64,000 nucleotides of DNA from positions 31,490,226 through 31,554,225 of the forward strand of contig NC_081354.1 in assembly GCF_030684315.1 (NCBI RefSeq). The letters run 5' to 3'. Numbering within the stretch: position 1 is the first letter of the stretch; every line of letters starts with the position of its first letter. The notes beneath the pieces are model-generated. The model was not told the DNA's origin. It did no database searches and worked only from the letters and a program-made list of their open reading frames with translations. The translations under genes and the position numbers were made by a program. Positions 20,206-57,769 of the stretch are shown here, in pieces. The stretch is from Stegostoma tigrinum (taxonomy: Eukaryota).

Positions 20206-21445
20206 CATCATCTTGTTTGAATTTGAATCATTTTTAAACACACCAGTCAAATTATTGTATAATATATCAAAAGCAAAACACAGTCCTGTATATGCCAGAA
20301 ATCTGAAATATTATTACACACGGAGGCACAATTTAAAGTTTCCATTAAAAGACTACAAACATAACAGGTGTGCATTTAATATACTTTATTATGTTTGAAG
20401 TTAATTCTTATTCTCCTTCATTCTTGCACATATATGTGCAAACCCCTCTGTTTTAGATGACATTATTGTCCTGAACAAATTAAAAAACATGCCCTCTATT
20501 GTCTTTTATTTCAAAATTTTAAAAAAAACTTACAAGCTACGAGAATAAGAGAGAAGACTTATTCTCTTGTCTAATTCCCGTCATCATCCAATGCAAAGCA
20601 AAATGTTTGGCAAGGATTAAAATGCAAAAACTGAAATTATGGATTTTGTGAAAATTCTTTCACCCTATTGTATTGATAACATGAATTGAGGTGCTGGACA
20701 TGGGGGCTAACTTAATGCTGCTGATGCATGCTGAGAAATTGTAAACATTGCATATTCAAACTATATCATATGTTGTCAGCTAACAGATTCCAAGATGGAA
20801 CATGCATAACTTTCATTGAAAGGAAAATGAAAGTTATTAAAAGATAATCATATTGTGAGAGATTTTGATATCATTATATGGCTTGAAACTTCATTTTACA
20901 TGATAAGCATATCAATTTCTATGAAAAGATTGGAGATATTTGCCTTTCAAAAAGTTTTGTGCTATTCATTTGGTTTACATTTTCTCTTAACCTTTGCTTT
21001 TAATTGGTTGGATATAAGATTATTTTTGGTAGTCATTCATAGTTTCTAAGCAATGAGTTGCTCCTCACTTGCTTATTTTTGGCGTATACACACTTTGATG
21101 CTTTCATACGCAAGAACAATGCAAAAGTTCTTTTCCAAAAATTCTGCTTTAAAGTCATTGCGTCTGCATATTATCAGTCTGCAGCTGCTATAGGAAAACA
21201 AATAAAAGATTCAGAGGTTAGGGCAAATTTTGCTTCACTGTCATTTTTTTTATAGAATTCATAGTGGGCCAAAGTCTTACTTCAAGCAAAAAATAGTTAA
21301 GTTGTCACTCATTGTTCTTGCAAATTGTAGAATATTTTTGAAGGAGTTAGCTGTGGACTCACAAATGATGTCCATGTGAGGAAGATAATAAAATGTGAGG
21401 CTGGATGAACACAGCAGGCCAAGCAGCATCTCAGGAGCACAAAAG

Positions 21446-21477
21446 CTGACGTTTCGGGCCTAGACCCTTCATCAGAG
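21446..21477 (-). ncRNA. Minimal hammerhead ribozyme motif, mirror copy in left arm
   Basis: Exact reverse complement of 22682-22713. Confidence 0.7.
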
Positions 21478-22006
21478 AGGGGGATGGGGGGAGGGAACTG
21501 GAATAAATAGGGAGAGAGGGGGAGGCGGACCGAAGATGGAGAGTAAAGAAGATAGGTGGAGAGGGTGTAGGTGGGGAGGTAGGGAGGGGATAGGTCAGTC
21601 CAGGGAAGACGGACAGGTCAAGGAGGTGGGATGAGGTTAGTAGGTAGCTGGGGGTGCGGCTTGGGGTGGGAGGAAGGGATGGGTGAGAGGAAGAACCGGT
21701 TAGGGAGGCAGAGACAGGTTGGACTGGTTTTGGGATGCAGTGGGTGGGGGGGAAGAGCTGGGCTGGTTGTGTGGTGCAGTGGGGGGAGGGGATGAACTGG
21801 GCTGGTTTAGGGATGCAGTGGGGGAAGGGGAGATTTTGAAACTGGTGAAGTCCACATTGATACCATATGGCTGCAGGGTTCCCAGGCGGAATATGAGTTG
21901 CTGTTCCTGCAACCTTCGGGTGGCATCATTGTGGCAGTGCAGGAGGCCCATGATGGACATGTCATCAAGAGAATGGGAGGGGGAGTGGAAATGGTTTGCG
22001 ACTGGG

Positions 22007-22459
22007 CAGAGGTTCACCTGCACATCTGCCAATGTGGTATACTGCATCCACTGTACCCGGTGCGGCTTCCTCTACATTGGGGAAACCAAGCGGCTGCTTG
22101 GGGACCGCTTTGCAGAACACCTCCGCTCAGTTCGCAACAAACAACTGCACCTCCCAGTCGCAAACCATTTCCACTCCCCCTCCCATTCTCTTGATGACAT
22201 GTCCATCATGGGCCTCCTGCACTGCCACAATGATGCCACCCGAAGGTTGCAGGAACAGCAACTCATATTCCGCCTGGGAACCCTGCAGCCATATGGTATC
22301 AATGTGGACTTCACCAGTTTCAAAATCTCCCCTTCCCCCACTGCATCCCTAAACCAGCCCAGTTCATCCCCTCCCCCCACTGCACCACACAACCAGCCCA
22401 GCTCTTCCCCCCCACCCACTGCATCCCAAAACCAGTCCAACCTGTCTCTGCCTCCCTAA
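22007..22459 (+). pseudogene. GIY-YIG endonuclease domain of the PLE ORF, 5'-truncated, no RT
   Basis: NVVYCIHCTRCGFLYIGETKRLLGDRFAEH...VANHF...EQQLIFRLGTLQPYGIN: VVY-YIG motif, Cys/His residues, catalytic R/E/N; uninterrupted frame. Confidence 0.9.
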
Positions 22460-22681
22460 CCGGTTCTTCCTCTCACCCATCCCTTCCTCCCACCCCAAGC
22501 CGCACCCCCAGCTACCTACTAACCTCATCCCACCTCCTTGACCTGTCCGTCTTCCCTGGACTGACCTATCCCCTCCCTCCCTCCCCACCTACACCCTCTC
22601 CACCTATCTTCTTTACTCTCCATCTTCGGTCCGCCTCCCCCTCTCTCCCTATTTATTCCAGTTCCCTCCCCCCATCCCCCT

Positions 22682-22713
22682 CTCTGATGAAGGGTCTAGG
22701 CCCGAAACGTCAG
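22682..22713 (+). ncRNA. Minimal hammerhead ribozyme motif, intact core
   Basis: CTGATGA (22684-22690)-a-GGGT ctag GCCC-GAAA-CGTC; palindromic ACGT stem III; predicted cut after C22711; stem I only 2 bp. Confidence 0.7.
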
Positions 22714-25223
22714 CTTTTGTGCTCCTGAGATGCTGCTTGGCCTGCTGTGTTCATCCAGCCTCACATTTTATTATCTTGGAATCTCCAGCATCTGCAGTTC
22801 CCATTATCTCCATGTGAGGAATATGCCTTTCTATTGAGTATATGTGACATTTGGAGGACAGACATTAAGTTAAATGGCACCACAATGTCTTGGAGGTTGC
22901 CTGCAGCAGATTCTGGCTGGATTACAGAATGCAGAAACCAAGCAGCTTGCTGGTGTTAAAAACAGATGAGTCTTATCCTAAGAAAAAGATAGTTGTTGAA
23001 TATATCTAATCCGAGCTTGTCTGCAAGCTCCTCTGTTCCAGTGTTCTTTTTAGCAGCTTGACAGTGAATGACTGAATGTAACACCATAGTTCTTAATGGA
23101 AATCTCACGTCATGCAAAGATAAAATGGATTTTGGCATCTGGACTAGATTATGAACTTGAGCATTGCTAGTTAGAATGAGAGAAAAAAACAGCTGAAGGA
23201 ATCCTTACCTTTATACTTTGCCATCTGGTCTTCATTAAATGAGAGTTCTGCCTTATTACATGAAGCTAGCCAGAAGACAGAAATGGATAGTTTTCAGTGC
23301 TTTTAGTTAAGCTGCCACCTTTTCTTTTCCCTGACAAATCCTCTATTTTATTTGATAATTTTATTTTTGAACAAATATTCAAAAAGAGATTTTGAGCAGC
23401 ATTTACCCTTTATGAGTCCCCCTCAGGAAATGAAATGGCTGATGGAGGGGCTGTAATTTCAGCCACTGACATTTCTCTCAACGTGGCCTGTAAAGACAGT
23501 ACTTGTCTAATTTTAGCTCAGCATATTCAGTACATTATAAAGACAACACGTGCATTTCTTCCATGTTGAGAACATTACAGAATTATAGACCCACATTTCA
23601 TACTGCTGCTGTTTATTTTTTAGCCAATGACTCTTGTTGATGATCATTGTTTGACTCTATCTGAGGTGAAATGCTTGCACTGCTGCCATTGTCTTCTGGT
23701 GGAAATTGATAGAATGTATTCCCATGTTTTCAGGGCAAATCTTTCTAACCTAATCATCAGAAGACCCAATGTCTTATGCATAATCAGAATGCCCTGGGAA
23801 ATGATCTGACAGTTATACTGTGGTAGATCAAGGCATTTGCACCTTACAGTTCTTTTACCACTGGGTGGGGTGGTGGGGTGTGAAGTGGAAGACACCATAA
23901 TAGCCTTTCATGTCCGATATTCTCAGAAAAACGATATCAGAGGATTTCGCTCACAAGTAAAATACACAGTTATTGTTGTTTTTCAGCCAAATTTCTCCAG
24001 AAAGATTTATTGTTCTGCCTTAGAGTTTTATAGCACTGCTACAGAGCATATGTGTATGCCAAATGCAAAGTATCACAAATACCATAAATAGGTTATATAT
24101 TAAATTGTCAGTGCAAGTTATATGATATGGTTGACAGCAGGCATGTTGTGACTGAAACAATGCAATGCTGAGCATGTCTCCTTTCAATTGTATTGAAGTA
24201 AAAATGTATATGAAGCAAAAATATCTCCCATTATGGTCAAACCCACTTTTTTAACCAAGGGTAACAAGTGGTGGAATCCACACCTTGTCATTTTTTTCAA
24301 CACTTAAGTAGGGAAACTGAAAAGACTGAATTTTACCATTAATCAATTGAAAGCCAATTTCAGTTTTTTGGAGGGTTTCTCTCCATGAGCTCTGGCAAGT
24401 TCACACACTATTACCTGTTGCTTACAACATTATCTGTGCACCACTCCTCTATGGTGTTATGCAAAGTAATTGAGTGCTCATCATTGGCAGAAGTACTTGC
24501 CTCTGCTGTCACTTCCTAGGATTTCAGCCATTGGCACAATGTTTAAAGCCCAGTAATGAACCAGGTCCAAGCCCCTAGCCAGAGATCATATGCTGCTATT
24601 GACTCACTGTGCCAGTACACACTGACTCATGACAGACCCATTGGCTTGATTGAAGACTACGCCCCTCAGGCTTTGAAACATTGCCATTTGGTTAAAGCAC
24701 AAGTATGCTTGCCACGTAAGCTGCTGTTATTGCAGCATTGACATAGCACTGTGCTGTAAGAACAGGTCCACTTCCTTACCTGATCACTGTTGACAACTAT
24801 TGCAAGATGCTTGGCACGCTGAGCCTTTAAGTTCTGAATGAGACAGTAAAGTGCATAAAGGCAATGCAAAATAGAGAAGCATTCAGGTAACTACGGAGTA
24901 AGAGACCAAGCAGAGAGCCCTGGGATGCACCCTGCTGTGAAGCATGAGATGAGTGCGAGTTCCTGCATGCAAAGCAGTCTGGCTGCAACAGTGGAGTGCG
25001 GTGTCGGTGAACTGCAGCACTGATGTGGAGAACCATTGTCAGTGAGTCAGAGATGTGCCATGATGCAAGTCCAGAGGAGCAAATGACCAGTTGCATCTAC
25101 CAAGTATCGGTTCTGACATTCCATTTCAGGAAGTGTCAATGCCCAGTTTCTCCCTGAGTATGGGAGAATAAACACATTGCATATAAAGGAGATTAGTCAC
25201 TAATTGAATATAAAGGGCAACTT

Positions 25224-25430
25224 ATAGAATCATAGACTCCCTACAGTGTGGAAGCAGGCCATTCAGCCCATCGTGTCCACACTGACCCTCCAAAGAGCAT
25301 CCCATCAGACCCACACCCTACCTATCTCTGTAACCCTGCATTCTTGATGGCTAATCCACCTAACCTGCACATTCCTAGACACTATGGACAATTTAGCATG
25401 GCCAATCCGTCTAACCTGTATGTGTTTGGA
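25224..25430 (-). mobile_element. HE1/V-SINE-like SINE, 3' half
   Basis: atagaatcatagactccctacagtgtggaagcaggccattc..tttagcatggccaatc; similar to 62529-62700. Confidence 0.7.
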
Positions 25431-25894
25431 ACTTGCAAATTACTTGAGTTGACTGAGATCCTCATCTTATCATTCATGCTTTGTTTGGAAAATCAGTGTT
25501 TGTTTTTCTTGATAATGAGAACCTTGTCTGTCCTGACCATATTTTCCCAGCTGACTCAACTTTGCGAATACTATTCGAGTCTGGGAGAATCCAATCAAGA
25601 GTATTTGCTTGCTAAGGAACTTCTGGAGAGATGGACCTCTCTTAACCTTCAACCAAAGTCTTGGGGTGGACTTTCCATTTAATACAAAGTCAGCAATGCA
25701 AGCCGTACCAAAGATAGCATCCATTCGTCAAAACCTTTATTGCCCCGGAATATCTGCTCAAACACATTTCCATATTTCTAAATGCATGATGTGCCATGAT
25801 CCAGCATGGCTCTTGGTGTTTTACAGCATAATTTAGTAAAACAAATGGTTTTTTTTAGAAAGGTTAATGTAATATTTAAGGCTGATAACTTTTA

Positions 25895-26255
25895 TTTATT
25901 TTTAAATGGAATGTAAGTGTTGCTGGTAAGGCCTTCGTTTGGTACAAATCCGTCATTGCCCTTGAACTGAGGAGACTACTTGCCAGGCCATCTCACAGTC
26001 AACTTTATTTTGTGGACAACATACGGGCCAACCAAGTAAGAGGAGCAGTTTTCCCTCTCTAAAAAGATGTTAGTGAAACCAGATGGGATTTTTATGATAG
26101 TCAGCCACTGTTAGTGGGAATAGCTTTCAATTATTAACTAATTGAATTTAGTTTTCACCAGCTGACATATTGAGATTTGAACCTGTCTCACCAGAATGTT
26201 AGCTTGGGTTCCTGGGTTATTCATCCAGTGAAATATTATCATTGTGCCACTGGCT
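25895..26255 (-). mobile_element. Old SINE-like element sharing its 3' end with the L2/Crack-like LINE
   Basis: ggaatgtaagtgttgctggtaaggcc..attgcccttg resembles the LINE tail at 16515; B-box-like gagatttgaacc near 26172. Confidence 0.4.
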
Positions 26256-28014: not shown

Positions 28015-30890
28015 ATAATAATTGATCTTGGAGGGAGTACAACATAGATTTCTGAGAACGATACCTGGACTTCAGTGGTTAACATACAACATAGAACATT
28101 ACAGCACAGTACAGGCCCTTTGGCCCTCGATGTTGTGCCGACCTGTCATACCGATCTCAAGCCCACCTAAGCTACACTATTCCATGTACGTCCATATGCT
28201 TATCCAATGACGACTTAAATGTACCCAAAGTTGGCAAATCTACTACCATTGCAGGCACAGCGTTCCATTCCCTTACTACTCTCTGAGTAAAGAAACTACC
28301 TCTGACATCAGTCCTATATTTTTCATCCCTCAATTTAAAGCTATGCCCCCTCGTGCTCGCCATCACCATCCTAGGAAAAAGGCTCTCCCTATCCACCCTA
28401 TCTAACACTCTGATTATTTTATATGTTTCAATTAAGTCACCTCTCAACCTTCTTCTCTCTAATGAAAACAGCCTCAAGTCCCTCAGCCTTTCCTCGTAAG
28501 ACCTTCCCTCCATACCAGGCAACATCCTAGTAAATCTCCTCTGCACCCTTTCCAAAGCTTCCACATCCTTCTTATAATGCGGTGACCAGAACTGTGCACA
28601 ATACTCCAAGTGTGGCCGCACCAGAGTTCTGTATGGCTTCACAATAACCTCTTGGTTCCAGAACTCGATCCCTCTATTAATAAAAGCTAAAACACTGTAT
28701 GCCTTCTTAACAGCCCTGTCAACCTGGGTGGCAACTTTCAAGGATCTGTGTACGTGGACACCGAGATCTCTCTGCTCATCTACACTACCAAGAATCTTAC
28801 CATTAGCCCAGTACTTTTCCTTCCGGTTACTCCTACCAAAGTGTATCACCTCACACTTGTCTGCATTAAACTCTATTTGTCACCTCTCAGCCCAGCTCTG
28901 CAGCTTATCTATGTCTCTCTGCAATCTATAACATCCTTCGTCACTATCCACAACTCCACCGACCTTAGTGTTGTCTGCAAATTTACTAACCTATCCTTCT
29001 ACACCCTCATCCAGGTCATTTATGAAAATGACAAACAGCAGTGGACCCAACACCGACCCTTGCGGTACACCACTAGTAACTGGTCTCCAGGATGAACATT
29101 TCCCATCAACTACCACCCTCTGTCTTCTTTCAGCAAGCCAATTTCCGATCCAAACTGCTATATCTCCCACAATTCCATTCCTCCGCATTTTGTACAATAG
29201 CCTACTATGGGGAAACTTATCGAACGCCTTGCTGAAATCCATATACACCACATCAACCGGTTTACTCTCATCTACCTGTTTGGTCACCTTCTCAAAGAAC
29301 TCAATAAGGCTTGTGAGGCACGACCTTCCCTTCACAAAACCATGCTGATTATCCCTAATCAACTTATTCTTTTCTAGATGACTATAAATCCTACCTCTTA
29401 TAACCTTTTCCAACACTTTACCAACAACTGAGGTAAGGCTCACTGGTCTATAATTATCAGGGTTGTCTCTACTCCCCTTCTTGAACAGGGGAACCACATT
29501 TGCTATCTTCCAGTCGTCTGGCACTGTTCCTGTGGACAATGACGAGTTAAAGATCAATGCCAAAGGCTCGGCAATCTCCTCCCTGGCTTCCCAGAGGATC
29601 CTAGGATAAATCCCATCCAGCCCAGGGGACTTATCTATCTTCACCCTCTGTAGGATTTCTAATACCTCTTCCTTGTGAACCTCAATCCCACGTAGTCTAG
29701 TAGCCTGTATCTCAGTATTCTCCTCGACAACATTGTCATTTTCTAGAGCGAATACTGTTGAAAAATATTCATTTAGCGCTTCCCCTATCTCATCTGACTC
29801 CACACACAACTTACCACTACTATCCTTGATTGGCCCTAACCTTACTTTCGTCATTCTTTTATTCCTTAAGTACCTATAGAAAGCCTTAGGGTTTACCCTG
29901 ATCCTATCCGCCAACAACTTCTCATGTCTCCTCCTGGATCTTCTGAGCTCTCTCTCTAGGTCTTTCCTAGCTACTTCGTAGCCCTCAAGCGCCCTAACTG
30001 ACCCTTCACATCTCATCCTAACCTAAGCCTTCTTCATCCTCTTGACCAGAGATTCCACCTCCGTCGTAAACCACGGCTCCTGCACTCTACAGCTTCCTCC
30101 CTGCCTGACAGGTACTTACTTATCTAGGACACACAGGAGCTTTTCCTGGAATAAGCTCCACATTTCTAATGTGCCCATCCCATGCAGTTTCCTTCCCCAT
30201 CCTATGCTTCCTAAATCTTGCCTAATCTCATCGTAATTGCCTTTCCCCCAGCTATAACTCTTGCCCAGTGGTATACACCTATCCCTTTCCATCACTAAAG
30301 TAAAATAACAGAATTGTGATCGCTATCACCAAAGTGCTCACCTACTTCCAAATCTAACACCTGGCCAGGCTCATTACCCATTTCCAAATCTAATGTGGCT
30401 TCGCCCCTTGTTGGCTTATCTACACACTGTGTCAGGAAGCCCTCCTGCACACAGTGGACAAAAACTGACCCAGCTATAGTACTCGAACTATCGTGTTCCC
30501 AGTCAATAACTTATGAGAAGAGATTGTACAAATTCAACCTGTTTTCTGCGAATTTAAAAGGTTAAGTGGTGAGTAGATAAAGATAAACTTTTTACACTGA
30601 TTGGAGATTCTAGAATTAGGGAGCAGAGGCTGAGAATTAAGGCCAGTCCATTCAGGAGAGATGTTAGGAAGCACTTCTATACACTAAGGCTGTTAAGTGT
30701 TTGGAACTCTCTTTCACAAATAGCGGTGAATGTGGGATCGGTTGTTAATTTTTAATCTGAGAAAAATAAGTTTTGTTAAGCCAAGAGACATAAGCAAAGG
30801 CAGGTGTATGGAGTTAGGCCATAGATTAGCCATGATCTGATTGAATGGTGGAACAGGAGGTACTGAATGGCCTACTCTTTTCACTATGTT
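28015..30890 (+). mobile_element. Old CR1 3' fragment split by a younger CR1
   Basis: LEGVQHRFLRTIPGLQWLT before 28082 continues as YEKRL.. after 30508 and on to a 3' UTR near 30890. Confidence 0.75.
28082..30507 (-). mobile_element. Young 5'-truncated CR1 LINE (ORF2 RT pseudogene)
   Basis: ORFs 28991-30016 and 28172-28849 with [30 protein letters not shown]; stop at 28991; FADD reads FADN; TTCTATG-type tail. Confidence 0.95.
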
Positions 30891-30894
30891 CCTT

Positions 30895-36439: not shown

Positions 36440-36441
36440 GA

Positions 36442-37049: not shown

Positions 37050-37050
37050 C

Positions 37051-39433: not shown

Positions 39434-42043
39434 CATAGAACATAGAACATAGAACAGTACAGCACAGAACAGGCCCTTCAGCCCACAATGTTGTGCCGAC
39501 CATTGATCCCCATGTATACACCCTCAAATTTCTGTGACCATATGCATGTCCAGCAGTCTCTTAAATGTACCCCAATGACCTTGCTTCCACAACTGCTGCT
39601 GGCAACGCATTCCATGCTCTCACAACTCTCTGTGTAAAGAACCCGCCTCTGGCATCCCCTCTATACTTTCCTCCAGCCAGCTTAAAACTATGACCCCTCG
39701 TGTTAGCCGTTTCTGCCCTGGAAAATAGTCTCTGGCTATCAACTCTATCTATGCCTCTCATTATCTTGTAGACCTCAATTAGGTCCCCTCTCCTCCTCCT
39801 TTTCTCCAATGAAAAAAGTCAAGCTCAGTCAACCTCTCTTCATAAGATAAGCCCTCCAGTCCAGGCAGCATCCTGGTAAACCTCCTCTGAACCCTCTCCA
39901 AAGCATCCACATCTTTCCTATAATAGGGCGCCCAGAACTGGACGCAGTATTCCAAGTGCGGTCTAACCAAAGTTTTATAGAGCTGCAACAAGATCTCACG
40001 ACTCTTAAACTCAATCCCCCTGCTAATGAAAGCCAAAACACCATATGCTTTCTTAACAACCCTGTCCACTTGGGTGGCCATTTTAAGGGATCTATGTATC
40101 TGCACACCAAGATCCCTCTGTTCCTCCACACTGCCAAGAATCCTATCCTTAATCCTGTACTCAGCTTTCAAATTCAACCTTCCAAAATGCATCACCTCGC
40201 ATTTATCCAGGTTGAACTCCATCTGCCACCTCTCAGCCCATCTCTGCATCCTGTCAATGTCCCGCTGCAGCCTACACCATCCCTCTATACTGTCAACGAC
40301 ACCTCCAACCTTTGTGTCGTCTGCAAACTTGCTGACCCAAACTTCAATCTCCTCATCCAAGTCATTAATAAAAATTACAAACAGTAGAGGGCCAAGGGCA
40401 GAGCCCTGTGGAACACCCACTCAACACTGACTTCCAGGCAGAATATTTTCCTTCTACTACCACTTGCTGCCTTCTGTTGGCCAGCCAATTCTGTATCCAG
40501 ACAGCTGAGTTCCCCTGTATCCCATTCCTCCTGACCTTCTAAATGAGCCTACCATGGGGAACCTTATCAAATGCGTTGCTTAAGTCCATATACACCACAT
40601 CCACAGCTCGACCCTCATCAACTTTTCTAGTCACATCCTCAAAGAACTCGATAAGGTTTGTGAGGCATGATCTGCCCCTCACAAAGCCGTGTTGATGCAT
40701 TTGATCAAGCCATGCTCTTCCAGATGGTCATAAATACTATCCCTCAGAATCCTTTTTAACACCTTGCAGACGACAGACGTGAGACTTACTGGTCTGTAAT
40801 TGCCGGGGATTTCCCTATTTCCTTTCTTGAAGAGAGGAATTACATTTGCCTCTCTCCAGTCCTCAGGCACGACTCCAGTGGAGAGCAAGGATGCAAAGAT
40901 CCTCTCAAGTGACGAAGCAATTGCATTTCTCGCTTCCCAAAGTAGCCGAGGACAAATCTCGTCCGGGCCTGGCGACTTGTCAATCTTAATGTTTGACAAA
41001 ATTTTCAGCACATCAGCTTCCTCTATCTCTATCCATTCCAGCATGCACACCTGCTCTTCAAAGGTTTCATTCACTACAAAGTTCATTTCTTTCGTAAAGA
41101 CAGAAGCAAAAAATTCATTTAGGGCTTCCCCTACCTCCTCAGACTCCACACACAAGTTCCCTATGCTATCCCTGATCAGCCCTACTCTTTCTTTGACCAT
41201 TCTCTTATTCCTCACGTAAGTGTAAAATGCCTTTGTGTTTTCCCTAATTCGTTCTGCCAAACCTTTCTCGTGCCCCCTCCTGGCTCTCCTCAGACCATTT
41301 TTGAGCTCCTTCCTTGCCTGCGTATAATCCTCTCTAGCTGAACTTGACCCTAGCTTCCTCCACCTTATGTAAGCTACCTTCTTCCTTTTCACAAGAAGCT
41401 CCACTGCTCTTGTCATCCAAGGTTCCTTTATCTTACCCCTTCGTGCCTGTCTCAGAGGGACATATTTACTCATCACTCGCAACAACTGTTCCTTAAACAG
41501 TATCCACATGTCTATAGTGCCTTTACCATGGAACAATTGCTCCCAGTCCATGCTTCCTAACTCATGTCTAATCGTGTCATAGTTTCCTCTTGCCCAATTA
41601 AATATCCTCCCATTTTGCCTAATCCTCTCCTTCTCCATAGCTATGTAGAATGTGAGGCAGTTATGGTCACTATCACCAAAATGCTCTCCCACCACAAGAT
41701 CTGATACCTGCCCCGGCTCGTTTCCGAGCACCAAGTCTAGAATGGCCTCTCCCCTCGTCGGCCTGTCAACGTACTGAATTAGGAAACCCTCTTGAACACA
41801 CCTTACAAAAACAGCTCCATTCAAATCTTCTGCTTGAAGGAGGTTCCAATCAATATTAGGAAAGTTAAAGTCACCCATTACAACAACCCTACTATGTCCA
41901 CACTTTTCCAAAATCTGTCGACCTATGCTTTCTTCAATCTCCCTGCTGCTATTGGGGGGCCTGTAGTAAACCCCCAATGAGGTGACTACTCCCTTGCTGT
42001 TCCTAATTTCCACCACACTGACTCGGTATGCAGATCTTCCTCG
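39434..42043 (-). mobile_element. Young CR1 LINE, partial APE endonuclease plus RT (frameshifted)
   Basis: ORFs 40679-42112 ([30 protein letters not shown]), 39779-40420 (GVPQGS, KFADDTK), 39561-39809; (CATAGAA)3 tail at 39434. Confidence 0.95.
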
Positions 42044-42114
42044 ACATGTTAAGGCTGGGAACACCGTGGTGTAATTATGTGGGCTGAGGAGACAGAATAA
42101 GCAATTGAGCATAC

Positions 42115-45291: not shown

Positions 45292-46610
45292 ACCCTTTTC
45301 CCAATCATTTTACAAACATCGAAATTTAATGTCCTGCCTTCTAATCCACAAGCATTCTCCCCAACTTTGCAACATATCACCTGTAAGCTTATGAACCATA
45401 CACCCTTCATTTACATCCAAATCATCTACATCAATTACAGAAAACAGCTCTTCAGTGACGCTCCTGGGTTGCACAGTGTGTATTGATGAACAAGTTGCTT
45501 TTCAATATGGCTGCCAGAATTTGGAGCCTGGAAGGTCCTTGTAGGGGCCGAACACCTTGCCCTCCTGTCCAATGATCCATGCACATAACTATGTGAGAAA
45601 TATTATCATATCTCCCCTGCCAAACGGACAATGAGAGGCGTCAGTGAAAAACAATTAGATAGAGCCTGGGTGACTTTACATTTTATTACTTTACATTGGA
45701 ATACACAAATACATGATAGCTCACTAATTAATCTAACTGATATCAGTTAACAATGCACAGGGTAAAGGGGTTGTGATTAATCACAAATTAAAATGGGCTT
45801 CCTGTCTGAAACTGGCATCAGTTGTAGGTATCTTTCAAAATAGTACATGTTTACTATCAATGTTAACAGGTCTGCGAGGCTACTGACCAACTATGAGGCC
45901 ATTACTACCTCATGAAGGCAAACATTAATGCCTGACTCCACACTTAGTCTCAAAAAAAGGCAAAATTGGGCTCTATCAGTGGATTGTATCTATTCCCTAG
46001 TAAGTATTGTTCATAATTTCCTTTGGCATCTTCTATACTACTCCCTTTCCTGGCTCCCTGTTATATGAAGGGGATTGATCTTCCTTGTCACCAACTATTG
46101 GAAAGAAAAAATGAAAGCTGTTGAAAGAAATTGTCATGTAACTGTGTGTTAACGAGGGCCAGTTGATGAAATCAATCAGATGCCCCATTACCTCTCTCAG
46201 CTGCCATTATTGTTGCATTTTTTTTGGTGTGTAGTTTAAAATCTGCCCCCTGTATTCTCTTAAGTCTGGCCTTTGTGCTATATTTCCACCTCTGGAATTC
46301 TGTACCAATCCCCTCACTAGTTTTATGTTCATTGTGCTCCCTGTAGATTTCAATGGATAGAAACAAAGTGACAATGCAAGGAGACTAAAGCTATATGCCT
46401 GTATCTTTATGTATGAGCTGGAATAGATTCTGAGGCAGAAGTTTCAAATTATGGAATAGACAGCAGAGAAAATTGGAAAGTTAATTTTTCATGCAAAAGG
46501 TTCCCTTTGTACTATTTTGAAAGATACCTACAGCTGATGCCAGAAGGTTCCCTTCTCCAGACCACCCTATACTATCTAAATTTAAGGAACATTAACCAAG
46601 TAACTGTTTT

Positions 46611-46824
46611 AGTGATAATGGGAACTGCAGATGCTGGAGAATCCGAGATAATAAAATGTGAGGCTGGATGAACACAGCAGGCCCAGCAGCATTACAGGAG
46701 CACAAAAGCTGACGTTTCGGGCCTAGACGCTTCATCAGTTGAAGGGTCTAGGCCCGAAACGTCAGCTTTTGTGCTCCTGAGATGCTGCTGGGCCTGCTAT
46801 GTTCATCCAGCATCACATTTTATT
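46611..46824. mobile_element. Non-coding hairpin PLE derivative (85-bp arms, 5-nt loop) with hammerhead core on minus strand
   Basis: Arms 46650-46734 and 46740-46824; tail 46611-46649; TSD attaaccaag(t/a)aactgtt at 46591-46608 and 46822-46839; core at 46711-46738 (-). Confidence 0.9.
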
Positions 46825-47159
46825 AACCAAGAAACTGTTATTGTGCTGATCAATGTTATAAATACCTCATTAATATTAATTCATATAGATTTCCGTTTTC
46901 TCAACAGAAACAAGCTTGAAAAAGGATATTTCCAACTTATTGAGCACAGCTGTAATTCCAGCTTCAGATTCATTTTACTTTCTGAGTTAATATATTTTTC
47001 TCCTAATATTTATTGAATGCTTAGGTACAATTTAAATATCAAAATGGGCTTCATAGAGACTTGGTTACAATAGCTGTGAGAACAGTTGTACAAATGCATT
47101 GAGATTGTTCTTGATTGTATTTCAGGAATATTAAAAAAAGCAATTCTCTGAAATGTCAA

Positions 47160-47272
47160 CTCAGAGATAGTAAGAACTGCAGATGCAGATGCAGGTCCTG
47201 ACCCGAAACATCAACTTTCCTGCTCCTCGGATGCTGCCTGGCCTGCTGTGATCCTCCAGCTTCACACTGTTA
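47160..47272. mobile_element. Minimal inverted PLE insertion (minus-strand tail joined to plus-strand terminus)
   Basis: cagagatagtaagaactgcagatgc then ggtcctgacccGAAAcatc..tgtta; 15-bp TSD TCTCTGAAATGTCAA (47145-47159, 47273-47287). Confidence 0.8.
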
Positions 47273-48181
47273 TCTCTGAAATGTCAATGTTGTTTTATTC
47301 AGCACCAAACAGTGTGAAAGACTACTCCATTTCTTATCATCAACAGTAAGTTGATTCTGTAAAAATAGGCGCTTTCCAGAACTACCATCTTCCCTTTCCG
47401 TGTGTAGCTGCAACAATTTTTTTAAAAATGAATAAATATTTATGGCTATGATGAATGAAAATTCTTACAGTGGAGCTCAGATTAGTAAACAAAATCTGAT
47501 TGATAAATAGTCTGTAATGCATAGTTCTGTCAGTGAATCACAAGACAGTAATTAAATTGAGGGACTTCAGTGACCTAATAAACCATAAAAGCAAAGCTCA
47601 AGTGGTTTTACATTTATCAACAAGACTCACAGCATTGGCTTCTGATATAATTAACTAAAAACCATTGAGCATTTGTTTAGGCTATTTCAAAGGCAGTAAT
47701 TGTTTGATATTTTATAAATGTTTGTTCTACATTCATAAAATAATCAAAAAGAAGCAATTAGAAGTCACTGCATAACCTAACAGATCATCCATTAATCAGA
47801 CCAATTATGCATCAACAACTATACACTACAGATGTTTAAATAAATGGGAAAAACAAAAAATATGGTTCATGTAGGAGTGAGAGCTATCAAACTAGGATAG
47901 TCTAACTTATTTCTTTGTATTACACTATATTTTCAGCTAGGGATGACATACAGGTCAGTATTCACTTGTTCCAGAAAACACAAAAGGAATTTCATGAAGA
48001 CTAATCACCAGAAGAACTCTGTTTAATTTGAACGGAAAATCAAGTCATGGATAGTGAACCTCCGAAAGCATTTACGTCTGAGATTTGCATGTGATCAGTG
48101 AAGTTGTGAAGCTTTGGAGCTTTTGTAAATCAGGTTGTGTGAAATCCAGAATCCTGGATTGCTTCCTGTTACACAGACATA

Positions 48182-48184
48182 GTG

Positions 48185-48266
<82 letters not shown>
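48182..48266 (+). repeat. Compound microsatellite (GT)n(AG)n
   Basis: GT repeat 48182-48220 directly followed by AG repeat 48221-48266. Confidence 0.98.
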
Positions 48267-48269
<3 letters not shown>

Positions 48270-48871
48270 GAGGGAGAAATAATTTGAAACAGGGTGTGTT
48301 CAAGCTACAAGATAATTGTCCTGTTGACAAAATTGTGCCCTTGCTATCTTTTCATATAGAATGAAATTGTCTCAAATAATGGCGACGATGGCACAAAATA
48401 GTCAATTTGAATACTCTAACAATGCCGAGCTTTTCATTTTTGTGATCGTCGACGGAGAAATTCATAATATTATAACACATAGATTCTACATGTGTTTCTT
48501 TTCGGCTGCTTTCAACCAGTAATCTGATTTTGTCTTGCGAAGTCTGGCATTACTGGTGCAGCAATGGCTTCAAACTAGGCTAGTAACCTGACCACCCTGT
48601 TAACATTAACAGTACATAAGTACCAGATTAAAGATGCCTTACCTTTCACTGGCTTAGCACATTCTGGTTTCAGGCAAGAGACCCATTTGAAGGTACAAAT
48701 CAGGGTAGACGGTCAATCTCACCCTGCTGCTCTGTGCTTTGTTAGATAATTGAGACATTTGAAGACCTGTAATTTAGCATCACTGTACAAAGAAATCGCC
48801 AATTCCTTTTTACTGACATATTTGATGGTAGGAATAAAGTTTTGCAGGGAATAGGGATTGAGTGCAGAATT

Positions 48872-49045
48872 CTTAGCATGGCCAATCCATATAACTTGCA
48901 CATCTTTGGACTGAAACCATAGAAAAACCCACCCAGACACTGGAAGAGTGCACAAACTCCACACAGACTGTTGCCTGAGGCTGGAATTGAACCCCAGTCC
49001 CCAGCACTATGGGGTAGAAGTGCTAACCACTGAGCCACTGTGCCT
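48872..49045 (-). mobile_element. HE1/V-SINE-like SINE, 5' half
   Basis: Reverse complement ggcacagtggctcagtggttagcac (A box) and gggttcaattcc (B box). Confidence 0.75.
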
Positions 49046-50480: not shown

Positions 50481-50705
50481 TTTTTTTTATCAATTTGCTC
50501 CCTTACCTCTCTCAGCAATCAGAGATACATCCCTTCCAGGCTTGGAGTGCTGCCAGCCATTTTAGCATTTCTTCTTTATCTATATTGCTCACTTGCTCAA
50601 CATTGAACATTGATCAACATCCACACTCTCAACTAAGCCAGTATCTTAGAAGATTCCTTAAATGAGGCAATTTGGATAGAACTTAAACACAAAAAAGGGG
50701 CTTTC

Positions 50706-51440
50706 AGGTTGGTTGGCTCACCGAGCTGGCTTGTTGTTCCACAGAAGTTTCGTTACCGTGCTTGGTAACATCCTCGGTGCAGCTTCTGATGAAGCGTCAG
50801 TGTGTTTTCCCATCTGGTTTTTAAACGCTGGGGTCCATTGCGATGGATTGCCTCACTTCCGGGTTTCCTCCTTAGTGGAATGTATATGGGGTCCAGTTCA
50901 ATGTCTGTATTAATAACCTGCTTCGTGGAATGCTATGCTTCCGGGAATTCTCGTGTTTGTCTCTGCCTAGCCTGTCCTAGGATCTTGGTGTTGCCCCAGT
51001 CGAAGTCATGGTTCTCTTTGTCCATGTGGATTGTGATGAGTTAATATTGGTGGGCCAATACTCACTCATCTCAATCCACATGGACAAGGAGAACCACGAC
51101 TTCGACTGGGACAACACCAAGATCCTGGGACAGGCTAGGCAGAGACAAACACGAGAATTCCTGGAAGCATAGCATTCCACGAAGCAGGCTATTAATAAAG
51201 ACATTGAGCTCGACCCCATATACATTCCACGACAGAGGAAGCCTCGAAGTGAGGCAATCCATCGCAATGAACCCCAGCACTTAAAAACCAGGCAGGAAAA
51301 TACACCGACGCTTCATCAGAGACTGCACTGAGGATGTTACCAAGCATGGTAACAAAACATTTACGGAACTACAAACCTGCTCAGTGAGCAAACCAACCTC
51401 AACACCCACAACCCGAGCTACAGATCTACTCTAAAACTTT
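50706..51440. mobile_element. Penelope/Poseidon-like PLE with inverted arms (336 bp)
   Basis: Arms 50706-51041 and 51064-51399; right arm encodes HDFDWDNTKILGQARQRQTREFLEA*HS..INKDIELDPIY; tail 51400-51440; TSD aaagggg(ct/ta)ttca at 50694-50706 and 51441-51453. Confidence 0.9.
51324..51364 (+). ncRNA. Hammerhead ribozyme motif (decayed); mirror copy at 50740-50781 (-)
   Basis: CTGAGGA-t-GTTACC-aagcat-GGTAAC-aaaa; the left arm keeps GAAAC-TTC but has CCGAGGA, so the consensus of both arms is a full core. Confidence 0.6.
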
Positions 51441-53889
51441 AAAGGGGTATTCACTTTTCTGGGAGTGTAAACAGACCCCCATCTCAGCGGAGATAGAAAG
51501 ATGCATATGTCAGCAAAACTCAGATGTGTGAAAATAATAAGATAATGACAGGGGATTTCAAATTCCCCAATACTAATTGGCATTGTCAAAGTATAGAAGG
51601 CTTGGAGGAGACAAAATTCTTAAACTATGTTCAGGAGAGCTTTTTAAGCCAGCATTAGGAAGCCCTACAAGAGAGGAGGTGATATTGGATCTAATTTTAG
51701 GGAAAAAAAGCTGGATGAGTTGTGGTTGTGTCTGTGGGAGAGCATTTCAGTAATAATTCAGTAAAATTGAAGGTAATTGTGGATAAGGACAAAGATGGAC
51801 TGGAAATAAAGTTTTGAATTGGGGGAATGCCAAATTTAATAATTTAGAACTTAGTCAAAGAGGACCAGGAACAGGAACTTACAGAAGTAAAATCCACATT
51901 ACAGCAGTGGGAGACGTTCAAAAGGTAATAGTAAGAGTGCAGGGCCAACATCTTTTCATAAAGAGAACCCTGAATAAGAGAAGGAAAAGGGAAACTTTTC
52001 ATAGGTATTCAAAGCTCAAAACAGCAGTTCCTCTGGAAGAGTACAGAAAGTGGAGAGGGTAGATTAATCAAGAAAGTTGGGGAGCAAAGAGAGGACATGA
52101 AAAAACACTGGTGGCTAATATTCAGGAAAATGAAAAAGCATTTCAGAAGAACATTAGAGAAAAGAAATGTCCAAGAAAGGAGTTGAGTCCATAAGAGACC
52201 AAAGTAATATAGACTTGGAAGACAAAGCTGAGGTTTTAAATGAGTACTTTGCATTTGTATTCATTGTATTGAAGAAAAATGGGGGTGTAGAAATCAGGGG
52301 GGAATATTGCAGTATATTTGAATAAATTAGTTTTGAGAGAGGTAAGGTATTAGCAGTTTTAGAAAGCTTGGAAGTTGACAGACCCTCAGGCTCAGATGAG
52401 ATGCATCCCTGCTGTGTGTGGGAGATAAGACATTTGCAAGGACGCCAACATTAATTTTCAAATCCACCATGGCCAGAGGAAGTATGCCAGAAGATTGGAG
52501 GACAACTAATGTGGCACCATTTTTCAAGATTGAGATAAATCAAATTGCAGTCCAGTGAGACTTCATCAATTAGTTGGGAAAGCAATGTAAAAAAATTTTG
52601 AAGGACAGAACAAATCGCTATTTGGAGAGGCAAGGATGAAGCAAGTAAAGTCAACATGGCTTGGCAAGGGGGAGAACATATCTAATAAATTTGATTACAT
52701 TTTTCAAGGAGGTGAATTGATATGTAGATGATGGCAGCGCTGTTGATTTCGTATTCATGAACTTTAGAATGGCTTTTGACTAGGTCTCACGTGGCAAAAT
52801 GGTTAAAAGTTAACAGCCCAGGTGATCCATAGCATTTTCGCAAAATGGATCCATAATTAACTTAGTGGTAGGATGCAAAGGGTGATTGTTGAAGGGTATC
52901 TTTGTGACCAGAAGCCTGTGTCCAGTGGAGGACTGCAATGTTCGATGCTGGAGCTCTTTTTATGTACGTTAATGTTAAGCACAAATTTGGGAAGTATGTG
53001 AGAAGGCACAAATATTGGTGGTGTACTAAATAGTGAGTAGTAAAACGTTAGACCACTGGATGACATAGACACACAAAACTGTGGGCCAAATACTAGAAAA
53101 TGGGACGAGAATAGATGATTGTTTCTTATCTGGTGAGGACACAATGGGTCAACTGGTCTCTTTCCATGTTGCAAAAACTTTTTGACTCTAATTTAAAGCT
53201 TGCAACCTCCCCAAAGACTGCCTACAGAACAAGCAATGGTGACAGTAACAGGAAGAGTGAGCAACAAGACAGATGCAATGGCAAGTACTTGAAGACATGC
53301 CCATAAGCATAGGCAGGACAAACTTTGAAGGCAATGGGGCAGTAAAGACAGTGCAATGAAAATATCTCAAAATGAATAGCCCAATGAATGTGATGAAACA
53401 TTGTTCTAAGATTATGCCATAGAACATAAACTACCACGACCAGAATCTTTTATCATGTGGAATGCTCACAACCAACTGAGAAATGGCAGAACTGATGCAA
53501 ACAATTCACCCGAGACAGAAATTTTCAGGATTGACAGAAAAATCAATAAAGTCCAGCCCAGTGCCCTACTCAGTGTAGCTAGTGGCATTCTGGATATGGA
53601 AAGATCTAATAAATTTATTCCAAGAGATTATCTTTTTGGTAACCCCATCCATGTTAAAATGGATGGGGTTAACAAAAAGATAATCCCTTGGAATAAACTT
53701 ATTAGATCTTTCCATATACTTAAGTAATCAGTGCAATATATTTATTGAAATAGCACAATTTAATAATTGGAAGCAAAAGCCAGGAGAGGAGATAAATTCC
53801 TTTCTCAACGTTATTTCATATAATTTGCAAATGTAAGACTTTAAAAATAATGTAATCAGAGACTGGATCAAATTAAGAGTTTTGGGAAG

Positions 53890-54130
53890 AGATCAAAGGA
53901 AGTGCAGATACTGGAGAATCTGAGATAACAAGGTGTAGAGCTGAATGAACACAGCAGGCCAAGCAGCATGAGAGGAGCAGGAAGGCTGATGTTTCAGGCA
54001 TATACCCGTCTTCAGAAAAAGGGAGAAGAATTTTTTTCTGAAGAAGGGTCTCGGCCTGAAACGTCAGCTTTCCTGCTCCTCTAATGCTGCTCGGCCTGCT
54101 GTGTTCATCCAGCTCTACACCTTGTTATCT
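53890..54130. mobile_element. Non-coding hairpin PLE derivative (98-bp arms, 12-nt loop) with hammerhead motifs
   Basis: Arms 53923-54020 and 54033-54130; tail 53890-53922; TSD GAGTTTTGGGAAG (53877-53889, 54133-54145); intact core CTGAAGA...GAAACGTC at 54038-54065. Confidence 0.9.
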
Positions 54131-54259
54131 ATGAGTTTTGGGAAGTTTTCTTTTCATTTTTCATACATTGTAGTGAAGGCTCAATAATAAAATTGGTGTA
54201 ATTAGCCATAGAAGATGAAGTTGGGAAACAAAAAAGAGTAGTTGTTTTGGGGGATCAAG

Positions 54260-55400
54260 AATTCCTATGGTTTAAAAAAGGGTGTTCAAGGCAATACAGC
54301 ATGTCATGCAATGTGGAATATGAAAAGTGAAAGTCTATCCAAGCCAAAACCAGGAGAAGTGCAAATAAATGATGGAAGGTGCAATTACATAGTAGCCTTC
54401 CTACAGATGGAAGAGAAGATGCTGCATCAGTGAGCAAGCTGTCTCATTAAACAAGCAGAATGCCACACCTGTGGAAAAGTCGTCAATTTTAAAACAGATT
54501 TTAAAATCAAAAAAAGAGTGAAAATCTTATTAGAAGCAGCAGTAGGCAGGAGATTAAAGAGCCTGTCTGTAATGAAATCACATGCTTAAGTAAAATACAA
54601 AAAGTTAGAAGAAATGATCTGTCACTTGGCTGGTCTTTGAATTCAGGGTAAAACAGAAACTGAGCATAAATGAAAGGATAGGAGCAGTACTAAAAACTTT
54701 GTAAGAAGCAGCATTAATACTAAATGAGAAATGTGACTTCTCAAAACTTACTGTCAAGTTTTTTTCCATATTGTTTACAAATCATGCATTACAGCATACT
54801 TGTTACAATATAAACGTTATCAAAGAATTCTTATTATCAAGGAATATCACAGAAGTGAAGGTGTTCATGGAATGGTCAGTTATGTTGACAAATTATTATC
54901 ACATTTCACACAAATCAATGAACCATTGAGACATCTTCACAGACAGGGCCAGGCATGGTGTCAGAATGAATATTATGAGCAGTCTTTTGGGAAAGAAACA
55001 AAGACATGCTGATTTCATCAGAAATTCTAGTTCTTTACGAGCCTGAACTAATGACCACAGTGCTGGGTGATGCATCGTCAACCGGACTAAGGGCAGTGTT
55101 ATTATAAATACAAACTGTTGGCAAAAATGCCAGTTTACTATGCATCCTGATCAATATCAGAAACTGAACTAAGATACATGATGATCAAAAAAGAAGCATT
55201 TGCAGTTACAAGGGCACACAAAAAAATTCTGATCACATTCTTTGAGTTGTAACTTTAAATTAAAACAGATGATAAGTGATTAGTAACATTTTTGAAAACC
55301 AAATAAGTTGCAAATATACCAATAAGGTTTCAAAGTTTCATACTCAGGCTAATAAGCTAAGACACCACAAAATAATGCATTCTGGGAACGTATTAAGCCA
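54260..55400 (+). pseudogene. Gypsy pol remnant (RNase H region)
   Basis: DASSTGLRAVLL, PVYYAS.SISETELRY, KEAFAVT, KTD motifs at 55068-55275; outer bounds uncertain. Confidence 0.7.
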
Positions 55401-55423
55401 AAACATAAAGAAATCGATCAACC

Positions 55424-55553
55424 ATAGAATATAGAAACATAGAACATTACAGCGCAGTACAGGCCCTTCGGCCCTTGATGTTGCACTGACCTGTGAAACC
55501 AATCTGAAGCCCATCTAACCTACACTATTCTATTATCATCCATATGTTTATCC
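55424..55553 (-). mobile_element. Short CR1 3' end
   Basis: Near match to 28085-28205 (catagaacattacagcgcagtacaggccc). Confidence 0.8.
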
Positions 55554-56647
55554 AGATCAGGCAAATAAAACCTCCATGGAACAAGTAGAGTTCTCATATC
55601 CTTGACAACCAAATAATTGCTTAAAATAGTAAGCAAACCAAACGGGTCCAGAAACTTAAATTTTGGCCACTGTGGGTGGAGGAGAACCAAAAGAACCAGG
55701 AGTGCATTTGGGTCAATGAGAAGAAAAGCATTAGTTGGGTGGACTAAATATCCTGATGTCCAGAAGGGGAACCATAATCAAACAGTTAATGTTTTCTGTT
55801 GATTTAAACAATTTGACTTTCAGAGGCAATGCAGATAGAGAGGACAGATCCTCACCTACTTCTGAGCAGAACTCAAACAACTCAGGGGAAATTAGTGAAA
55901 CAACAGTGCAATGGTTATCTCTTTGAAACAGGGTCTTTATGATGGTTGGGTAAGGGGGTGGTAGGTGGCAGGGAAAATTTTATACAAGTTATAAATGTTG
56001 GTATAAAGACAATGAACTTTCCAATAAGATTAAGCATGTGTGTATGTTTTTAGGAAGCTTTGTCAGTAGCGCTGTAATAAATTACACAGTAATGGAGAGA
56101 CTCTGAAGAGAGTAGCAAGAGAGAAGATAAAGCCTGTGGCTCATGTTAAATCTAAATGTATATAGTTATTAGAGTGTAGATAGCAGTTACTTTGAAAAGT
56201 AACCCAGAATACTGCAATCTCTCTTTAGTGATATACTGCATCCAACCCCACAAGGTTAACCACACAACAGATTGAGTGTGGGATTAGTGTAAATGTATGT
56301 TTTCTTAAACGGAGACTGGAAAGAGGAATAAGGAACATACTCACCTCCAATTAATGGCACAGGAAACACTCTCAGGAGCTTGTTAAAGTGCCAAAGAGGG
56401 CGAGAATGGAATTTTCAGCCAAATAGTCTGGTGTTCATTACTACAAAACTGTTGAGGTCAATGCAGGAAATATTTTTTAGTGAAGTGTAAAGTTACCAGG
56501 AGCCCAGGGTCTTGCACTGGATTATGCTCATTCTTTCTCCTTTTGAATGTTTGGCCACTTTCGTGGGTTGTGAGGCTGTGGTTATGTACCATTCAGCAAA
56601 ACAAAAGCAGACACAACTACGTCTGCTGCCGGCCTTTGCCAGTGATG

Positions 56648-57151
56648 ATGTGGAGATGCTGGTGTGGGACTGGGCTGGACGAAGTCAGAAATCACATGAC
56701 ACCAGATTATAGTCCAACAAGTTTATTTGTAAACACAAGCTTTCAGGCAGGCAGTTCTTTTTCAGGTGGTTGTGAGAGAGGTAGTATCAGACATAGAATT
56801 TATAAATAAAAGATCAAAGGCCCATATCATTAATGAGGATGTACTAAACAACCCTAAGATGATGTTAATCAGTTAGAAGGTTCCCAAATTCCTTTCAAGC
56901 CATGATCCTGAGAGAACTAAAGGCTTTTATCAATGGAAAGAAGAGATGACATTTTATGTCAGACAATGCATATTAGGTATGGGGCCTTGTTTAGAGCCTG
57001 TTTGTCTTTTGGTTTGGAGTCAGACGGATTTTATGTCCAAAGTAGGAATTTATAAATTGCTACATTGACGGAGTGTCAATACATTGTGTGCTTTTTGAAC
57101 AAAATTGAATATATCTGCAAATACAAATACACCCCATAGATTTGCGTGCGC

Positions 57152-57187
<36 letters not shown>

Positions 57188-57363
57188 ATCTTATGTTTTT
57201 ATCGTACATCCTCATCAATGGTGTGACCCTTTGATCTTGCACTAATAAATTCTGTGTCTGATGCTACTTCTCTCACTAACACCTGAAGAGGGACTGAGGC
57301 TCCAAAAGCTTGTGTTTGCAAATAAACCTGTTGGACTATAACCTGGTGTGGTGTGATTTCTGA
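56648..57363. mobile_element. Third-family PLE derivative with inverted 160-bp termini and internal (GT)n
   Basis: Arms 56684-56844 and 57204-57364; tail 56648-56683; 15-bp TSD CCTTTGCCAGTGATG (56633-56647, 57364-57378); decayed core cCTGAAGA..ctccAAAAGCTT near 57283-57310. Confidence 0.8.
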
Positions 57364-57769
57364 CCTTTGCCAGTGATGTTCTGCAGACAGTGTCTATCTT
57401 GGTGCCACTCACGAGATGTCAAGGTTACCTCTGCTTTAATTATTAAATATAAAAATGGTATTATGTAATTAATGTGGATGTGGTGAGGGGTCAGGGGAAA
57501 TTATCTGGGATTAGATTCCCAATCCCAAATTGATAATCTGGTCCCAGGTATCAAACTTGAAGCTTTTTGTTTCATAACTTAGAATTAGACTGGATGCTTC
57601 CTTGATCATTACATTTTGAAGCATTGGGTGTTTTCAAGCAGCCATCATAAGCATTGGAAAACGGAATAGACTTTTAAAATATCAAAGAACAATGATTGAA
57701 ACAAAAGTGGAAAATTCTGAAACTGCTCAGCTGGTTGATGTCCTAACGTGGAACTTAAATGTTGTGGAA

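Follow-up and report, generated by a model that had tools for sequence, protein, structure and literature searches.

Penelope-like elements (PLEs) leave inverted insertions in the genome of Stegostoma tigrinum that carry a short tail at one end and lack it at the other. We describe this architecture for a stretch of 64,000 nucleotides of this genome (contig NC_081354.1, positions 31,490,226 to 31,554,225 of the forward strand; hereafter the window), which holds six PLE insertions, and for loci sampled elsewhere in the assembly. In an inverted insertion, two arms of the same subfamily lie between one pair of target site duplications (TSDs); each arm ends in the pseudo-long terminal repeat (pLTR) of the element, one of them extending into the tail and the other stopping before it. 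Across both of our samples, 104 of 105 TSD-validated inverted insertions, from four families (A to D), are one-tailed, and the pattern is real and general in the sampled genome. Its probable origin is priming by both target overhangs within a single RNA-protein complex, with the tail end used by one and an inner site by the other; the two complementary DNAs (cDNAs) would then extend to a common RNA 5' end and become joined.

Inverted insertions carry one tail in four families

The first sample comprised 220 partly overlapping loci (1.16 Mb), all on the largest contig and picked by a pLTR anchor, to which the window was added; the second comprised 20 further loci and 17 random tiles of other contigs. 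A pair was validated by a duplication adjoining both of its ends, with a threshold that 0.6% of 3,000 mismatched pairs pass. In the sampled loci, arm ends formed two clusters with almost nothing between them, so the tail-less ends cluster rather than falling at random, the outcome against which the first-pass annotation of the window had staked its rule. Tailed and tail-less arms were nearly equal in number (89:93 in family A, 77:72 in B, 39:38 in C, and 40:43 in D), and independent ends would therefore make approximately 50% of the pairs mixed. Instead, all 90 TSD-validated pairs of the first sample, found among 198 outward-facing candidates, combined a tailed with a tail-less arm (72 in families A and B, 10 in C, and 8 in D), and the side of the tail was split 47:43. 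When the TSD filter was lifted, mixed pairs made up 104 of the 105 mutual nearest pairs no more than 700 nt apart. The second sample gave nine mixed pairs out of nine in the 20 new loci and five out of six in the random tiles (14 of 15 together). Among 46 hairpins selected solely by their center, two of which were already in the first sample, 44 were one-tailed, a count that rises to 45 with the hairpin at L238 (the same as L305), whose tail sits on an outer tandem unit.

Both arms arrive together and are coupled in length and sequence

At locus L159, position 6367 is joined to position 6535 without intervening letters in contigs of a related organism from two studies. The 167 nt skipped are the exact TSD-to-TSD distance, and both arms are missing together; independence of the arms at empty sites, the other finding that the first-pass annotation had set against itself, is thus not what this site displays. 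A second pair in L159 gave a less exact fit, with a net skip of 156 nt in the related organism versus 157 expected. At insertion 2 of the window, a related-organism contig has 72 letters instead of 337, with approximately 69 expected if a separate 36-nt piece is allowed for; nearby, a 36-nt inverted copy (46508 to 46543) of positions 45812 to 45847 is apparently missing in the related organism. Insertion 3 is present there as well. Both arms of an inverted insertion arrive in a single event.

The lengths of the two arms are coupled. Among the 66 family A and B pairs that remained after 6 of the 72, with an unassigned spacer, were dropped, 17 were long-long, 46 short-short, and only 3 mixed (P = 5e-13), and short arms ended 7 nt apart, compared with 22 nt in permuted pairs. 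The arms of one insertion carry the same subfamily variants, differing at 1.14 positions versus 1.88 in permuted pairs (n = 29, P = 0.0002). The center was near-symmetric (within 15 nt) in 35 of the 66 pairs; the tailed arm was longer in 19 and the tail-less arm in 12, and in 5 pairs the tail-less arm was longer by more than 100 nt. Arm overlap spans 25 to 1,340 nt, spacers of 0 to 1 nt occur in 12 hairpins, long insertions have private centers, and in two cases (insertion 3 of the window and L208) the tailed arm consists of the tail alone.

Direct insertions were found among 64 unpaired arms of family A: 9 tailed and 3 tail-less ones with a TSD, the tail-less ones with TSDs of 12 to 14 bp, which indicates that the inner site can prime alone. 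The rest comprised 8 arms whose inverted partner was short, deep, or missed, a further 8 whose candidate repeats are not TSDs, and 36 without a TSD.

Arm ends fall in two zones, with microhomology at both junctions

The TSDs bear the signature of a staggered cut, with a modal length of 14 to 15 bp (40 of 72 and 28 of 41). The tail-less end lies 4 to 13 nt beyond the anchor in 69 of the 72 family A and B pairs, and the tailed end of these pairs spreads across 39 to 57 nt. In 6 of 44 center-selected hairpins, the tail-less end lies 14 to 45 nt deeper, a class invisible to the anchor-based sample.

Microhomology of 1 to 5 nt is present at both junctions. The overlap between element and TSD had a mean of 1.82 nt at the tail-less and 1.53 nt at the tailed junction (n = 72 each, P = 0.21), whereas simulated junctions scored likewise gave 0.76 nt and 0.75 nt, respectively, so that both ends look primed by short pairing. 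The first-pass annotation had described the overlap as a trait of the tail-less junction; we rejected this specificity, since both junctions exceed the simulated null.

In families A and B, a similar ATTATCT-like motif closes both the inner and the outer site. Two separate family A insertions (L073:1160-1331 and L153:5379-6521) occupy one spot within a family D pLTR, and at that spot the target end matches 5 nt of the inner start site. In families A, C, and D (window positions 22744 to 22800, 51370 to 51420, and 56650 to 56715), a complementarity of 7 to 9 nt between the middle of the tail and the upstream pLTR encloses the inner site, and 90 to 92% of the cells of this putative helix are paired in families C and D. 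The helix showed no covariation and was not retrieved by RNAalifold in either C or D, and we treat it as no more than a lead.

Direct junctions mark two candidate RNA 5' ends

A genome-wide search for direct junctions to the bases immediately 3' of the predicted hammerhead cut gave 231 matches, 144 from the inner site and 87 from the tail end. Such junctions often stand in arrays of 68-nt units, running from the cut to the inner site, or of 103-nt units, running from the cut to the tail end; in L304 to L343 and L356 to L375, arrays of up to approximately 10 units were seen, with junctions that vary inside an array. The search pattern let the restart float over 17 positions, and 86 of 100 inner-site junctions among the matches listed, of 145, restart exactly at the predicted cut (plus or minus one shared A; eye count). 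A second class of 45 junctions, to which L344 to L355 belong, restarts near CTCTCTGATGA, 30 nt downstream of the TATA-like TATTTATT. An extra G, templated by neither side, is present in 26 of these 45 (eye count). Copying of an RNA cap would leave an extra G, and the upstream restart is likely to represent a capped RNA start.

At loci chosen for their arrays, junctions vary within 17 of 29 arm arrays, with five kinds among six junctions in L361, a better match to repeated re-priming than to a circle or a duplication of DNA. In L330, L338, L343, and L366, the tail-less arm bears an array of tailed units and the tailed arm is single, and the two arms of L356 bear different arrays; copying of the tailed arm cannot explain these cases. 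We also considered whether each strand keeps its first start site on re-priming and rejected this, as switches and stays both occur.

A proposed model with two primers on one RNA

We propose that the enzyme of the element would cut both DNA strands approximately 14 to 15 bp apart and that each 3' overhang would then start reverse transcription within a single RNA-protein complex, one using the tail end and the other an inner site approximately 35 nt upstream. A dimer with two active sites may engage both sites of one RNA, in which case one end of each kind would be forced. The enzyme that follows would displace the cDNA made by the one ahead, and the cDNAs could run to the RNA 5' end, formed either by the hammerhead cut or by a capped start that lies 30 nt downstream of the TATA-like box, or might terminate sooner, whereupon their 3' ends might be joined via short annealing into near-perfect palindromes. 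A single surviving cDNA would give a direct insertion with either end, and rarely (in approximately 0.2% of family A arms) a run-off cDNA may re-prime at either site and generate the 68-nt or 103-nt arrays. Dual priming is the best-supported reading, explaining the one-tailed rule, the microhomology at both ends, both types of direct insertion, the pairs with a longer tail-less arm, the arrays confined to one arm, and the spacers of 0 to 1 nt. More tentative, although plausible, is the following joint claim: that this is a programmed twin priming in which a dimer loads both target ends at two built-in sites of one RNA, that the 5' boundary of this RNA is a cap or the product of hammerhead self-cleavage in the germ line, and that the telomerase-related reverse transcriptase (RT) repeatedly re-primes its own product on the template so bounded, in a repeat addition like that of telomerase, as recorded in more than 200 genomic junctions.

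The first-pass annotation had arrived at two primers as well. Its mechanism fares best among the explanations considered, with the amendment that the positions it took as fixed are zones (4 to 13 nt and 39 to 57 nt), and the two priming positions that it offered as its own deduction had already been mapped in vitro (PMC11167929). It had further held that the mechanism can be read from a single locus. This was too optimistic: a cDNA that folds back gives an identical single-locus picture, so that the argument against fold-back rests on the wider sample.

Several observations weigh against dual priming on one RNA. The one-of-each rule rests on sampled loci, most from one chromosome. One insertion in the random tiles (L296) is tail-less at both ends within a 14-bp TSD, and one center-selected hairpin (L229) has two tails, without a TSD. 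Of 19 pairs whose arms differ by more than 100 nt, 14 have the longer arm on the tailed side, a bias that fold-back predicts, and later deletions at the palindrome center could create the pairs with a longer tail-less arm. The ends of long arms are uncorrelated (n = 17, P = 0.21 to 0.27); correlated truncation of these arms was rejected as not significant, and a shared RNA end is therefore demonstrated for short arms only. The arms of L357 and L362 are mirror-identical, including a rare internal junction, again as fold-back predicts; under dual priming they need an RNA already holding the array, and such source loci exist (L363 and L371). Hairpin centers at the cut number 709, compared with 279 at a control center 10 nt inside, too weak a difference for hairpin counts to be retained as proof of the cut, and cut-type junctions are few in family B (6 matches, 4 at the cut). 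Finally, with the Anolis Poseidon element PAc in vitro, the two strands did not differ in their start sites, and uncut RNA was the main template (PMC11167929).

In one alternative, the 3' end of a tail-primed cDNA folds back and copies the cDNA itself as far as the inner site or less, after which microhomology links the product to the other overhang. Self-priming, with an antisense template, has been proposed from junction palindromes (PMC3846280). Such a fold-back would account for the single tail, the near-symmetric centers (35 of 66 within 15 nt), the shared variants, the excess of longer tailed arms (19 versus 12), the deeper tail-less ends (6 of 44), and the mirror arrays of L357 and L362. 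However, direct tail-less insertions with intact TSDs (3 of the 12 direct ones), tail-only arms, pairs with a longer tail-less arm, arrays on the tail-less arm only, and spacers of 0 to 1 nt, which leave too short a loop, speak against it unless deletions occurred later, and RT starts at the inner position in vitro (PMC11167929). While still conceivable, fold-back appears unlikely to us. Dual priming might also take place on two RNAs held by one dimer, the asymmetry of the complex setting the site of each, in a manner resembling L1 dual priming (PMC2837659). Strand displacement would then be unnecessary, and the lack of correlation in the lengths of long arms would fit, as would the independent arrays that L356 bears on its two arms, but this scheme offers no simple cause for the strict one-of-each pairing or for short arms ending at most 7 nt apart away from the two fixed 5' ends, and it requires both RNAs to be of one subfamily and length class; we consider it distinctly improbable.

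Two further explanations place the origin of the pattern elsewhere. Palindromes are unstable, and existing inverted copies could have been reinserted whole, as transcripts or as DNA, or their arms homogenized or trimmed later by conversion, cruciform repair, or loss of two-tailed palindromes, as the recurrent centers (709 and 279 identical hairpins) and the mirror arrays might suggest. Yet long insertions have private centers, direct insertions use both ends, junctions vary within 17 of 29 arm arrays, and any loss of two-tailed or tail-less pairs should ignore a tail that lies 50 to 1,000 nt from the center, so that such copying or editing is very hard to credit. That the arms are independent insertions at a hot spot might come to mind with families this abundant (124,132 exact anchors for family A), but a single TSD encloses both arms, 104 of 105 pairs are mixed, and empty sites lack both arms; the exact empty site refutes this idea at L159, and we attach practically no weight to it in general.

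Element families and their hammerheads

Exact 19- to 23-nt pLTR anchors across the 3.2-Gb genome number 124,132 for family A, 35,476 for B, 1,218 for C, and 4,512 for D. Families A (insertions 1 and 2 of the window) and B (insertions 3 and 5) are related Neptune-like subfamilies, 75 to 85% alike. A near-complete family A insertion at L141 consists of an inverted tail-less arm, a 5' pLTR, a frameshifted open reading frame (ORF) with RT and GIY-YIG, a 3' pLTR, a tail, and a 14-bp TSD. The tail of its 5' pLTR runs into the ORF, and the element thus has the pLTR-ORF-pLTR arrangement with an adjoining inverted truncated copy that is a trait of endonuclease-bearing (EN+) PLEs. Its 483-amino-acid frame contains YIDD and VVYCIHCTRCGFLYIGET, that is, the RT and the C-terminal two-cysteine GIY-YIG of EN+ PLEs; the Pfam GIY-YIG match (E = 0.00075) is below the curated cutoff, and Pfam assigned no RT family to the PLE fragments tested. 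Family C shows a GIY-YIG motif of the L141 type, and family D is represented by C-terminal pieces only.

A CX2-5CxxC linker between RT and endonuclease marks Neptune and is common to Nematis (PMC8557442). It is present in family A (CNRRKCYTC, L141) and family D (CHGNLCKTC, L089/L090); family B is placed with Neptune via its DNA likeness to A only, and in family C one decayed copy (L052) lacks the linker in the 70 residues that precede its GIY-YIG motif. On this basis, families A, B, and D are Neptune-like, and family C is tentatively Poseidon-like. Of the three families named in the first-pass annotation, the Neptune-like and the Poseidon-like ones are retained, and the supposed third one (insertion 6, family D) bears the Neptune-type linker.

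Minimal hammerheads of PLE pLTRs have been described previously (PMC4209133). Pattern matching predicted intact minimal hammerhead cores in arms of all four families (111 of 182 in A, 34 of 148 in B, 23 of 77 in C, and 15 of 83 in D). No Rfam family matches these hammerheads, the Rfam matches being hairpin look-alikes. As a qualification of the earlier label "ribozyme-bearing", the cores have decayed in window insertions 4 and 6.

The six insertions of the window and other repeats

Self-comparison of the window and direct reading of its letters place all six PLE insertions where the first-pass annotation had put them (Table 1). Their arms stand back to back with the RNA 3' directions pointing outward, and each insertion has one tailed and one tail-less end, as the proposed single rule demands; insertion 3 departs from that rule in having no inverted repeat, its left arm being the tail alone, next to a longer tail-less arm. 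Tails measured 33, 38, approximately 26 (partial), 38 to 41, 33, and 36 nt in insertions 1 to 6 by self-alignment, in agreement with the lengths first given (33, about 39, about 25, 41, 33, and 36 nt). The TSD range of 13 to 18 bp was borne out in five insertions, with exact copies of 13, 15, 13, and 15 bp in insertions 1, 3, 5, and 6 and 18 bp with one mismatch in insertion 2; in insertion 4, only 7 bp are exact, and 13 bp are reached if two mismatches are allowed.

Table 1. Positions of the PLE insertions and their parts in the window
Feature	Position	Strand	Description
Insertion 1, left TSD	21371..21383	+	13 bp; its last 2 nt also match the tail-less arm
Insertion 1, inverted tail-less arm	21382..22006	-	Family A; end of GIY-YIG ORF, 3' untranslated region, pLTR with hammerhead
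Insertion 1, tailed arm	22007..22810	+	Family A; Neptune-like GIY-YIG fragment; exceeds the other arm by 146 nt at the 5' side
TATA-like TATTTATT	22650..22657	+	Putative promoter, 30 nt upstream of the putative RNA start at 22680
Minimal type I hammerhead core	22684..22711	+	CUGAUGA, helix II, GAAA-CGUC; predicted cut after 22711; motif class as in PMC4209133
Insertion 1, tail	22778..22810	+	33 nt; in the full-length copy L141 the tail sequence continues into the ORF start
Insertion 1, right TSD	22809..22821	+	13 bp, exact match to the left copy
Insertion 2 with 18-bp TSDs	46591..46839		Family A; tailed arm 46611-46738 (-), tail-less arm 46740-46825 (+); TSDs 46591-46608 and 46822-46839
Insertion 3 with 15-bp TSDs	47145..47287		Family A/B; tail-only arm from 47160 (-), tail-less arm to 47272 (+)
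Insertion 4 with degraded 13-bp TSDs	50694..51453		Poseidon-like family C; tail-less arm (-), tailed arm (+), both 335 nt from the anchor; 4-nt spacer
Insertion 5 with 13-bp TSDs	53877..54145		Family B; tailed arm 53890-54024 (-), tail-less arm to 54130 (+)
Insertion 6 with 15-bp TSDs	56633..57378		Second Neptune-like family, D; tailed longer arm from 56648 (-), tail-less arm to 57363 (+)

Two further pLTR copies in the window begin at the putative RNA start: a direct tailed solo pLTR on the minus strand with an 11-bp TSD (4540 to 4670) and a young tail-less family A pLTR (7790 to 7885) nested in an older family B copy (7619 to 8306). A 124-bp palindrome at 53594 to 53717, for which no TSD was found, is unrelated to the PLE arms and is possibly a miniature DNA transposon. 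Long multicopy repeats, 65 to 81% alike, lie at 3448 to 4201, 16540 to 17899, 28081 to 30465, 39434 to 41812, 57897 to 59619, and 63118 to 63857.

Comparison with known systems

Inverted pLTRs, an optional or one-sided tail, and TSDs have been described before (PMC8557442, Fig. 2; PMC3846280; PMC2377424), and the insertions studied here resemble those of Drosophila virilis Penelope, Adineta Pen2a, and Naiad in being inverted-pLTR insertions of endonuclease-bearing PLEs. In the available text of those accounts, however, the tail is optional and uncounted, whereas here 104 of 105 insertions in four families are one-tailed; the TSDs are 14 to 15 bp long, compared with 8 to 10 bp in Adineta, and microhomology is present at both junctions. 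For PAc, two RT start sites at the borders of the tail, with both strands cut and extended, have been mapped in vitro (Frangieh et al. 2024, PMC11167929); the PAc protein is predicted to be dimeric, and genomic ends coincide with the start sites. As far as its available text goes, that study links the two sites neither to the two strands nor to the inverted structure, and it found no RNA ends at the hammerhead cut, to which genomic junctions do map here. It leaves the steps after priming unvalidated, and the origin of the tandem and inverted structures of PLEs is named as open in PMC8557442. In our literature search, neither an obligate one-of-each rule nor cut-to-start arrays were found to be described, and older PLE papers may hold a two-primer model. 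The architecture and the two start sites are thus already known, and the strictness of the pairing and its implications are new: across Neptune-like and Poseidon-like families, the "optional tail" becomes a constraint that can be tested in the existing in vitro system.

A close parallel outside PLEs is L1 twin or dual priming, which shares the priming by both overhangs that we infer here, inverted pieces within one TSD, and junction microhomology, with a TSD average of 14 bp in L1 (PMC2837659). In L1, as described in the available text of that source, the position of the second site varies and there is no overlap between the pieces; in the PLEs studied here that site is clustered and apparently built into the RNA, the arms overlap, and the inverted insertion is the main product. 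The arrays, in turn, recall non-LTR retrozymes, tandem repeats that derive from hammerhead-bearing PLE ends (bioRxiv 10.64898/2026.07.22.740005; PMC4209133). Retrozyme units run from cut to cut and contain a whole hammerhead, whereas the units described here begin 3' of the cut, lack the core, run to an RT start site, and have variable junctions, and they do not qualify as retrozymes by that definition. The junctions that coincide with the predicted cut would testify to cleavage by the minimal hammerhead in vivo, and the arrays bear on the origin of repeat addition in the sister group of telomerase.

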